Shown here piece after piece: positions 4,459 to 7,400 of a DNA stretch of 64,000 nucleotides. The stretch is from Chiloscyllium plagiosum (lineage: Eukaryota), in the NCBI RefSeq assembly GCF_004010195.1, contig NC_057736.1:14120062-14184061 (forward strand). The letters are read 5' to 3'. The translations under genes and the position numbers were made by a program. The notes under the pieces were generated by a model. That model did no database searches and was not told the DNA's origin. It saw only the letters and a list, made by a program, of their open reading frames with translations. Numbering within the stretch: the stretch's first letter is position 1; every line of letters begins with the position of its first letter.

Positions 4459-7400
4459 CTGAGGAGTGTGGCACAGGAAGATTAGATCTAGTTTACATGT
4501 TACAAAGAACCAACAATACATTCTAAGTAAAGAACTATCAGATTCAGCACTCACATAATGCCACCATACGTGATTTCTAGCTCACCTCATATTGAAACCA
4601 AGTAACTTTGCAAAGCAGAGCTCAAAATATAGATTGTCTGCAACTGTCATGAGGCAGTGTATGCTGCAACGATGGCAAGGTGTCTGGAGTTTATCGGTTC
4701 ATGAAATCCAAATGGAATAGAGGAGCTCTGATGGTATGGTGCTAATGATCCTACCTTTGGGCCGGAACATCTGGGTTCCAGTCCCACTTAGTCCAGGTAC
4801 GTAATAACATCTGTGAACAGATGATTAGAGAATATCTAACAGACACACACAGCCTTGGGCCTGCACTTTGTAAAGTTACTCATCATCTGTTGTAAGCAAT
4901 TATCAGGCCTGGTGTAGCTACAATGACAATACCTGCCTTGGGGACATGAAGCAGGAATTAAGTTCTTTATTTACAAATTTGTCCTGATCCAGTTTGGTGG
5001 GATTTTCTTTGATGTCATTCTAAGAACATGGATGTCTTTGTGTCTTATCTGTAGTTGTTAAATGTAGTTGTTTCTTTGCTTTATGCTCCAATGGAGAATC
5101 CAAACCTGAAACATGAATATTTTATCTCTTGCTCAACAGCTACTGCATGACATGATGAGTATTTCCAGCATGAACTTGTTTTGATATTAACTATATTCAA
5201 TCCTAATTTCCCTTCTACAGAAATGCAGATTCTAACACTTCGATATCACGATTTCTATCCTTGTGTGACATTTTTCAGAGTTAGGACTACCAAGACCAGA
5301 GACAGGATTCAGTAGTGAATTGGTGGATTCATTGCACTGTTAAAACAATTCCCCTTACCTCCACTATCAGACCAAAAAGGTCATAGCTCAATAATACACT
5401 AATTTTTAATTCACTAATCTTGCCTCCCAAGGAGGCAAAATAACCTGAAAAGTAACATGATGCAACTTGAGTATCGACTTGACGGGGGGAAAAAGTCACA
5501 TCCACAGGAGCCATCATCAGTGAATTCTCAATTCCAATAAAAAGGTGCAGCTGCATAATCCCATCCATTCAACTCAAGTCCGAACTAATATCAGAGTTTT
5601 GTAAGGTGGGAGGACAGGCATTCTAACTCAAGGTAGGGTGAAGGACCTACAGTCAGTGCCAAGCAAGGTGTCTTTGCTCAACAAAGGAGTGTGCTGTTTT
5701 GACTGCTGATTACTGGTAAGCTGTAGTATGGGGGATATTTTAAGTTTGTAGCACCTTTGGATTTTTTTTGGAGTGGGGACAGAAGAGGAAAAAAAACGCG
5801 AAATAGAGAGTGTGACACACGGACAGTCATGTCCCCAGTGAGAGCCATGTCCATAACAACGGTAACAGAGAACCACAACCATCAAGACCATTCAATCCAA
5901 TGAAAACTCAACAACAATTTGCAATTAAATATTGCCATTGTTTTATAAAAACACCCAACATACTTCATGGCATTGATTTCAATCTTCTGTTGCTTGGTGT
6001 CTAAATTTATTTGTGTTAGGACAGATGACCAAACAAACAAAAGAAAACTTTAAGGACATCTGGAAATGAAACTGAGAGGAAGGAGTTTTAAGGAAGCAAA
6101 TTCAAAGATAATGGCCAAGGCAACTGAGTAGATCACTGTCAATAGCGATGTGACTAACATATGGGATGCACAAGAGGTCAGAACTGAGGTAGCATATAAA
6201 GCAGGTGAAACTTTATTGCTGGAACAGCACAGCAGGTCAGGCAGCATCCAGGGAACAGGAGATTCGACGTTTCGGGCACAGGCCCTTCTTCCTCATTCCT
6301 GAAGAAGGGCCTGTGCCCGAAACGTCGAATCTCCTGTTCCCTGGATGCTGCCTGACCTGCTGTGCTGTTCCAGCAATAAAGTTTCAACTTTGATCTCCAG
6401 CATCTGCAGACCTCACTTTCTCCTATAAAGCAGGTGAAGAAGGGTTTAAAAAAAAGACATGGTCACAGAGGGAGTTGAAGTTATTAGACAACATTAAAGT
6501 GAATTTAAGATGGGGGTAACATATTACAATCTATGAGGACTGAGGTAGTAAATAGTCAGAGATCCAAAGGTCCATGCTGACCAGATCTCCAATCTAGTCC
6601 CACTTGCCAACACCCAGCCCATATCCCTCCAAACCCTTCCTATTCACATACCCAACCAGGAGCCTTTTAAATGTTGCAATTGTACCAGCCTCCACCACTT
6701 CCGCTGGCAGCTCATTCCATACATGCACCACCTACATAAAAAAGTTGCCCCTTATGTCTCTTTTGTAACTTTCCCCTCTCACCCTAAAGCTATGCCTTCT
6801 AGTTCTGGATTCCCCCACCCCATGTCACTGGGGGCAAAGACTTTGTCTATTTATCCTAACCATGCCCCTCGTGATTTTATAAACCTCTACAAGATCGTCC
6901 CTCAGCCTCCAAGGAAGACAGCCCCAGACTCTTCAACCTCTCCCTATAGCCCAAATCCTCCAACCCTGGCAACATCCTTGTAAATCTTTTCTCAACCCTT
7001 TCACAACATCCTTCCAATAGGAAGGAGACCAGAATTGCATGCAATATTCCAAAAATGGCCTAACCAATGTCCTGTACAACATGACCTCCCAACTCCTATA
7101 CTCAATACTCTGACCAATAAAGGGAAGCATACCAAACACCTTCTTCACTATCTTATCTGCGACTCCACTTTCAAGGAACTATGAACCTGCACTCCAAGGT
7201 CTCTTTGTTCAGCAACACTTCCTACGAGCATACTATTAAATGTATAAGTCCTGCTCAGATTTGCTTTCCCAAAATGCAGCACCTCTCATTTATCTAAACG
7301 CCGTCTGCCACTCCTCAGCTCGTTGGCCCGTCTGATCAAGATCCTATTGTAACTTGAGGTAATCTTCTTTACTGTCCACTACACCTCCAATTTTGGTGTC

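Follow-up and report, generated by a model that had tools for sequence, protein, structure and literature searches.

The 64,000-nt window analysed here (Chiloscyllium plagiosum, contig NC_057736.1, positions 14,120,062 to 14,184,061) contains a nuclear-receptor exon, an exon of a GPN-type GTPase, and numerous copies of a hammerhead-like sequence. These copies raise the question of whether they are ribozyme-bearing units that spread on their own or remnants of larger elements. We read them as pLTR hammerheads of several Penelope-like families that survive as short 5'-truncated insertions, whose mirror arm, likely rebuilt with every landing, is predicted to trap the ribozyme within a long hairpin (probability about 0.65). 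The motifs themselves are real minimal type I hammerheads that belong to an already published class of Penelope-like elements (PLEs). The PLE identity of the insertions that carry them is almost certain, given the hammerhead boxes, the target-site duplications (TSDs), the long and short arms that differ by ~40 nt in length, and the link to the end of a PLE endonuclease.

Hammerhead-like sequence was present in all nine stretches named by the initial annotation, but several of the cores were broken (10853, 45478-45512, and 2042-2083 on the minus strand). The best stem I, with 6 bp, was that of 22072-22111, which also has a complete core, a 4-bp stem II, and the ACGU palindrome; N17 of this copy lies at 22105, which was the cleavage position originally assigned. 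The core was also complete at 6295-6330 (4-bp stem II, ACGU palindrome, 4-bp stem I, N17 at 6326), at 35983-36017 (5-bp stem II, 3-bp stem I, AAGCTT, N17 at 36014), and at 22983-23022 (6-bp stem II, 3-bp stem I, and a U-G wobble as the helix III pair). Two further complete cores had weaker first stems: 57-92 retained 3 of 4 pairs because of a U-U mismatch, and 40433-40460 had just 2 bp since the upstream side of its stem I is the inversion junction.

The remaining copies were more decayed. Near 10853, the compensatory GGGT/ACCC was present and the core was degenerate as had been claimed, with C3, U4, and G12 missing. In family 3, the description of 35983-36017 was accurate, whereas 45478-45512 was not intact: G12 was changed to A, stem II was broken after 3 bp, and AAGCTA was found instead of AAGCTT. 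The minus copy of family 2 at 2042-2083 did not agree with its description either; its GAAA box was split by an insertion, and the 3' strand of stem II, GTAAC, was shifted in register from the one described. Every copy with a readable core had the extra base that follows CUGANGA, which had originally been attributed to most copies.

Sixteen arms were tabulated, including the decayed 35171 row and leaving out the broken 2077 copy. The core boxes CUGANGA and GAAA, together with U16.1 and H17, were complete in 9 of the 16. Stem II was closed by the G10.1-C11.1 pair in 7 of the 8 family-1 rows that have letters there, A9 was followed by one extra base, and the same arrangement was found in families 2 and 3. 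Helix III was palindromic and loopless, with ACGU in family 1 and AGCU in family 3, and showed a U-G wobble in family 2 and at 53778; these wobbles fit CpG decay. Stem I contained at least 3 pairs at 6299, 22078, 35986, and 22986, and the U-U mismatch occurred at 61, 40433, and 53778; T91 was the majority letter in the sequencing runs.

A strict descriptor that required the core boxes, a palindromic helix III, and 3 bp or more in both stem I and stem II was passed by three motifs in the window (6299, 22078, and 35986) and by none in 200 simulated windows of the same length, comprising 100 order-1 and 100 order-3 Markov sequences. In the family-1 alignment of 9 rows, 82.7% of cells paired, compared to 17.8-43.8% when the partners were slid. 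The claimed stem covariation within family 1 was not significant, as double-sided changes in 2 of 10 pairs were matched by 175 of 500 shuffles, with low power from only 9 rows; the claim hangs on one decayed copy. Across the three families, the stem sequences differed and, as judged by eye, pairing was kept as annotated. Among the rows listed for the sequencing runs, non-CpG variation affected loop II, N7, and stem I position 91, and stem II and core rows showed CpG-type changes only. No hammerhead family was among the 8 matches of Rfam covariance models to the window at E up to 1, and an exact pattern search of metagenome contigs gave 0 matches. The number of loci had been underestimated at about ten motifs in 64 kb: profile searches yielded ~22 loci covering 4,261 bp, or 6.7% of the window (hand-drawn spans), with no match at E 1 in the reversed window.

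Most well-kept copies were head-to-head insertions of 180-220 bp, in which a short arm and a long arm ~40 nt longer lay between TSDs of 12-17 bp. Six loci contained near-perfect head-to-head inverted arms of 55-89 nt (94-100% complementary). The arm-length difference in the five cleanest inserts was 41, 41, 40, 37, and 44 nt, and the tail was confined to one arm in 7 of 7 clear fold-backs. Exact flanking direct repeats of 12-17 nt were detected at 7 of the 20 spans tested, compared to repeats of at least 12 nt at 2 of 300 random spans. The other 13 spans, mostly decayed copies, showed no TSD above chance.

The insertion at 6210-6423 consists of a short arm at 6210-6291 (minus) and a long arm at 6292-6423 (plus), which carries the hammerhead 6295-6330 and a tail of ~41 nt, within a 15-bp TSD (6195-6209 and 6424-6438). 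At 21992-22199, 83-nt arms with 100% complementarity are separated by a 4-nt loop and accompany the plus hammerhead 22072-22111; the 17-bp TSD (21975-21991 and 22200-22216) includes microhomology. Both arms of the insertion at 9803-9999 begin at stem II and hence have no CUGANGA box (12-bp TSD, 9791-9802 and 10000-10011). The arms of a related subfamily at 17540-17744 also begin in stem II, with a tailed minus arm and a 12-bp TSD. The older insertion at 10761-10966 has its GGGT/ACCC hammerhead at 10852, a tailed left arm that begins 3' of the cut site, and a 12-bp TSD. At 40338-40519, the minus arm is tailed and internally deleted, the plus hammerhead is 40433-40460, and the 17-bp TSD includes microhomology.

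Family 3 was represented by a fold-back insertion at 45355-45573, with G12 changed to A in both hammerheads, a tailed minus arm, and a weak 8-bp TSD that lies within chance, and by a locus at 35777-36074, where the intact plus-strand hammerhead 35983-36017 is accompanied by a decayed, inverted, and tailed arm (~35750-35826, minus). The inverted pair of family 2 at 22594-23070 contains hammerheads at 22688 (minus, G5 changed to A) and 22986 (plus, complete core with the helix III U-G), with a 27-codon frame upstream (22805-22885, minus); the split minus-strand copy of this family occupies 1985-2090. Solo copies were also present. The 92-bp insertion at 53690-53781 (minus) extends from the start of stem I to the short-arm end, with a 12-bp TSD of its own and a broken stem II. 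The tail-less copy containing hammerhead 57-92 (plus) extends from PLE 3' UTR-like sequence at the window start to ~152. A decayed related copy with complete core boxes was found by profile search at 14997-15114 (minus), and other decayed copies lie near 5090, 31300, 32540, 35170, 44100, 46700, 49120, and 53345.

The link to PLEs was provided by a longer inverted pair at 20930-21670. Each of its arms contains an endonuclease C-terminus (21298-21191 on the minus strand and 21345-21392 on the plus strand), a C-rich 3' UTR, and a decayed family-1 hammerhead (21014, minus; 21549, plus); the plus arm is tailed and no TSD stood out. When the endonuclease part of P0001, a protein with RT plus GIY-YIG, was compared to the whole window, these two stretches were matched at E 5e-4 and 0.008, respectively. 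The PLE origin proposed at the outset was thus upheld by a GIY-YIG C-terminus ~160-180 nt upstream of both hammerheads and by the PLE-style inverted repeat, tail, and TSD. In P0004, an RT+EN gene model from another shark, the terminal peptide resembles a translated hammerhead frame, a likeness noticed post hoc in 1 of 122 proteins (E 0.03-0.14). The 27-codon frame of family 2 resembles what we take to be an endonuclease end, and it had no Pfam match. Family 3 showed no link to any ORF within the window.

A broken PLE ORF at 62601-64000 (plus) runs from the RT region to a CX2-5CxxC linker and is cut by the window end, with no hammerhead seen upstream. This fragment matched proteins with RT and GIY-YIG domains and the same linker, and the named best relatives were from Rhincodon, Stegostoma, and Chiloscyllium. 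The linker lies between RT and EN, at the end of ORF 63385-63999 and also in P0001, P0008, P0020, and P0047; the available text of PMC8557442 gives it as a mark of the Neptune and Nematis clades. By its sequence, the partner protein of family 1 would be of the Neptune/Nematis type, not separated further. The annotated role of this PLE as mobiliser held only in part: its clade is the likely source of family 1, but the copy itself is ruled out as an active driver by its stops and frameshifts. No tie between this PLE and families 2 and 3 was found.

The inverted arms also indicate when the inversion was made. The long arms 6295-6423 and 22074-22202 were identical at 129 of 129 positions, which, together with the exact TSDs, agrees with a partly young population. 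However, the arms of these two inserts begin at reference positions 63/54 and 61/57, respectively, so that the centres differ between identical long arms. Therefore, the mirror arm was likely made anew per insertion and not copied from a single master palindrome, and the inversion very probably arises during insertion. This argues against a self-propagating mini-element. The junction 9880/9881 is a perfect palindrome with no loop, 22073/22074 has no usable microhomology, and three junctions have microhomology of 2-3 nt.

For the insertion itself, we consider that the PLE protein might nick both target strands 12-17 nt apart, with each nick priming reverse transcription at one of two internal start sites ~40 nt apart. 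By analogy with an anole PLE, for which the accessible part of PMC11167929 describes two such sites ~40 nt apart in vitro, we give this step an even chance. Two cDNAs would result, one with and one without the tail, and their head-to-head junction would show little or no microhomology. More tentatively, these cDNAs may terminate close to the first base of stem I, as that is where the uncut template RNA would start. Such run-off and the double priming are both weaker than formation at insertion; they draw on analogy with the anole Poseidon, and the protein linked to family 1 is of the Neptune/Nematis type. None of the sequences examined was a full-length element of these families from which a promoter, RNA start, or RT start site could be mapped. 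In Drosophila virilis, transcription begins ~120 nt before the hammerhead, a distance made up of 46 nt and a 75-nt intron (available portion of PMC2377424; intron end at helix I in that of PMC4209133), and this weighs against cDNA run-off at stem I. The arm starts, which scatter over reference positions 54-69 with one near 100, also stand against it, and joints from 89-102 are what run-off at a cleaved end would give.

The 5' ends were further analysed in sequencing runs. Four of 24 runs (X1, X9, X17, and X21) were aligned to window positions 1-330 at 85% likeness, with the copy 57-92 as reference. The repeat was matched by 65,444 contigs of X1 and 57,004 of X9, which are not copy numbers and are in line with the large population that had been suggested. 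Among the loose ends listed, place 57, the first base of stem I, was the best-supported 5' end in all four runs (195 reads; 254, 275, and 57 contigs), with a flank agreement of only 0.32-0.41, and the cut site 88/89 did not appear. Depth was flat across 23-55 and rose across 56-77 (raw reads 287 to 1,268), a step to which subfamilies diverging upstream of 57 could contribute.

Joints to 57 or 58 originated at 68, 91, 102, 118, 141, 144, and 151. They included the head-to-tail joints 141→57, 144→58, and 151→58 in X9, X17, and X1. Other joints paired 53-57 with 89-91, some began at 89-102, and a single G preceded 57 in two of the joints listed. Two go-back joints were found in X17, a run that may be DNA, and none was listed for the raw RNA run X21. 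One X9 contig contained the flank 158-330 and ran on with the repeat missing, which may represent an empty site in organism B. The base at place 57 is the A of TCATTC, a sequence that fits the initiator consensus. The letters 57-59 are ATT, and by analogy with the anole endonuclease, which cuts at this motif, they would be an equally good cause of the boundary. A splice acceptor was rejected as its cause because the preceding bases are not AG.

Folding predictions differed between the isolated motif and the whole insert. In 22072-22111 alone, stems I and II formed with probability 0.72-1.0 (stem II, 0.99). In the whole inserts 6210-6423 and 21991-22202, the predicted probability of both stems was 0.0. 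Function in place, as implied by the initial annotation, is therefore disfavoured, since pairing with the mirror (antisense) arm is predicted to mask the motif. The proposed test construct 22060-22125 includes part of the mirror arm, and its predicted probability of stems I and II was likewise 0.0. When 22072-22111 was folded as two strands, stems I and II paired between the molecules, and the active dimer, which the model cannot represent, was not obtained. Sequestration does not apply to the solo copies at 57 and 53778 because no mirror arm is present there, and the head-to-tail joints in other runs could permit dimer cleavage. Published minimal hammerheads cleave poorly, only as dimers or with PLE protein, according to the available sections of PMC4209133, PMC11167929, and PMC6765202. 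The folding model makes it quite likely that the ribozymes would be mostly inert in place and that host transcripts containing them would form 50-85-bp duplexes open to ADAR. The motif was probably selected in the source elements, where it would cut as a dimer or with help from the protein.

The RNA run X21 comes from a different individual and is a poly(A) single-cell library, of which 2% was read; such a library shows cut ends poorly. Within this limit, RNA ends did not pile up in X21 and read depth was maintained across the cut site. For the stretch 20900-23100, no RNA data set was listed, which carries no weight in either direction. A>G changes were listed at 15 places in X21 compared to 1 each in the contig runs X1 and X9; the copy has 27 A, and contigs drop rare variants. 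At place 117, A>G occurred in 174 of 1262 reads of one orientation and 40 of 835 of the other (contigs, 1.3%), and at place 129, T>C occurred in 136 of 732 and 39 of 1193. The A>G excess and the orientation bias at 117 and 129 are as A-to-I editing would give and are a hint of it; a few loci could dominate the counts, and DNA was not matched. Lizard Penelope and palindromic frog repeats are described as heavily edited in the accessible text of PMC5625713.

The same PLE origin could also lead to these inserts by another route, in which one cDNA folds back near the hammerhead and self-primes a DNA-templated mirror arm, and the endonuclease, perhaps by a cut at the stem I ATT, then resolves the intermediate so that one side keeps the tail. 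In the parts of the papers available to us, self-priming at palindromic junctions is put forward for the PLEs of A. vaga (PMC3846280), and resolution by the endonuclease as the origin of the tail (PMC8557442). Such a route would yield exactly one tail per insert, as in the 7 of 7 observed here, and the 2-3 nt microhomology at three junctions and the joints of 53-57 with 89-91 fit folding back on stem I. However, the loopless perfect palindrome at 9880/9881 and the junction 22073/22074, without usable microhomology, do not favour it. A true RT start site is suggested by the solo copies, whose ends at 53690 (in an insertion that has a TSD of its own) and ~152 coincide with the short-arm end; in the available text of PMC11167929, the anole enzyme uses both sites to extend each of the two nicked strands. 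We regard the fold-back as the main alternative, though a rather unlikely one.

The initial annotation had instead suggested non-autonomous mini-elements, which in a retrozyme- or SINE-like form would be transcribed, self-cleaving, perhaps circular, and copied whole by a PLE protein. The very high abundance, the recurrent unit ends (57 to ~150 or 190), and the head-to-tail joints would suit this proposal, and the available part of 10.64898/2026.07.22.740005 reports pLTR-derived non-LTR retrozymes from one chondrichthyan genome. We consider it very unlikely, because insertions that are otherwise identical have different centres, the window's 5 tandem arrays all lack a hammerhead, and longer copies run upstream into the endonuclease ORF. 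Cleavage would also strip a linear unit of the core sequence 5' of the cut site, which the inserts keep, and the lack of an RNA end pile-up in X21 weakly points the same way. Hairpins of ~200 bp with TSDs might otherwise be taken for MITE-like DNA transposons or miRNA precursors whose hammerhead likeness is due to chance, and Rfam miRNA models did match three of them (best, 59.3 bits). Every Rfam match was below the gathering score, and the miRNA matches were rejected as hairpin artefacts. Asymmetric arms, TSDs of 12-17 nt, variable centres, solo arms, arms running into the end of a GIY-YIG ORF, and the absence of descriptor matches in the 200 simulated windows make such an origin extremely improbable.

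The preferred reading, 5'-truncated PLE insertions with a mirror arm rebuilt at each landing, was compared with known systems. As in the metazoan PLE hammerheads of Cervera and de la Pena 2014 (PMC4209133, available sections), the motifs here are type I, with a loopless palindromic helix III, an extra base between 9 and 10.1, and G10.1-C11.1. They also share the 4-5 bp helix I, many families per genome, and a predominance of solo motifs or opposite-strand pairs, probably from truncated PLEs. In contrast, such pairs are 100-700 bp apart there and mostly 0-10 nt apart here. Complex PLE insertions, as far as they are described in the available parts of PMC3846280 and PMC8557442, share the head-to-head inverted 5'-truncated copy, the 30-40 bp tail at one end only, the variable TSD, and the palindromic junction. 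Unlike those, the inserts here are reduced to a hammerhead-plus-tail stump with no ORF, and a concentration of 5' ends on the first stem I base, as seen here, was not found in those parts.

PAc, a Poseidon element of Anolis carolinensis (PMC11167929, accessible part), is similar in having two RT start sites that define the tail and both strands nicked and extended. In the same part of that paper, the main substrate is RNA that has not been cut, RNA-seq ends are absent from the cut site, and the endonuclease prefers ATT. PAc differs in belonging to a PLE clade other than that of family 1's partner, which has the CX2-5CxxC linker, and the window copies are known from sequence alone. Non-LTR retrozymes (available sections of PMC7229834 and 10.64898/2026.07.22.740005) are likewise non-coding, with a pLTR-derived type I hammerhead and chondrichthyan occurrence. 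They form head-to-tail tandem units with circular RNAs, whereas the window copies are head-to-head or solo.

As a ribozyme discovery, the motifs of this window are ordinary; minimal hammerheads of PLE repeats and their spread as truncated copies have been known since 2014. The searched literature contained no account of hammerheads of this type in sharks or of a 5'-end pile-up at stem I, and no shark term was found in the available content of supplement file 2 of PMC4209133; subscription papers, Repbase/Dfam, and some supplements, which were outside the search, may already cover these families. What was newly seen is that the best-supported 5' end in four sequencing runs is the first base of stem I and not the cut site, together with the hint of A-to-I editing in RNA reads.

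These insertions are useful for the open question of how PLEs produce inverted, tailed inserts. Very many young, TSD-bounded, 200-bp inserts with two junctions each are available, so that counting can separate twin priming, fold-back, and endonuclease resolution, and the 5'-end pile-up at stem I is a sharp, testable clue. In a bolder and doubtful form, the stumps might be a fossil record of PLE insertion, in which a protein dimer primed at the two nicks would make two copies of one capped, uncut RNA with its 5' end at the first base of stem I, using both internal start sites. If true, it would account for the inverted repeat with a single tail, for the thousands of solo minimal hammerheads in the genomes of animals, and for the extra G that sometimes precedes stem I. 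The hairpins may supply the host with much double-stranded RNA and can be mistaken for MITEs or miRNA precursors. PLEs would then, if this holds, be a major origin of the short, perfect hairpins that ADAR edits in shark RNA.

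The host exons in the window lie on the + strand at 25695-26336, 31768-34003 and 48573-50332, and show a resemblance to NR0B2, GPN2 and GPATCH3. Pfam matches in these exons were the nuclear receptor ligand-binding domain (PF00104) and a GPN-type GTPase (PF03029), and the exons lying between these two had no Pfam match. A second decayed reverse-transcriptase fragment of a Penelope-like element (PLE) was located at 28198-28691 (+) and was matched by many of the 122 proteins. Other fragments (38425-40706, 47795-48190 and 55672-56881) resemble CR1-type LINE reverse transcriptase and endonuclease, and the fold-back at 40338-40519 sits inside one of them. 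A 117-bp tandem duplication with 96% identity, lacking a hammerhead, was also observed at 38036-38277. The GC-richer stretch at 19950-20800, in which two frames of 120-138 codons overlap, is possibly another repeat.

Near the family-1 hammerhead copy at 57-92, a pyrimidine-rich tract (10-35) ending in AG was found 21 nt upstream of stem I. This tract looks like a splice acceptor within the PLE 3' UTR or terminal repeat (pLTR). The Penelope element of D. virilis carries an intron whose end lies at helix I (PMC4209133).

In the RNA run X21, reads over 1-152 displayed an orientation-biased excess of A>G, which may point to A-to-I editing of this repeat family. Contig 24 of run X9 carries the flank 158-330 and runs on without the hammerhead element; on this one contig, the bordering site is possibly empty in organism B, the source of X9.

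Contigs of runs X1, X9 and X17 contained the joints 141→57, 144→58, 151→58 and 145→23, in which the hammerhead unit is arranged head-to-tail. These are candidate retrozyme-like tandems, in which dimer cleavage could take place.

Rfam miRNA models matched fold-back inserts at 17617-17711, 9829-9933 and 45423-45532, with scores below the gathering score. Fold-back inserts of this kind might be annotated in error as miRNA precursors.
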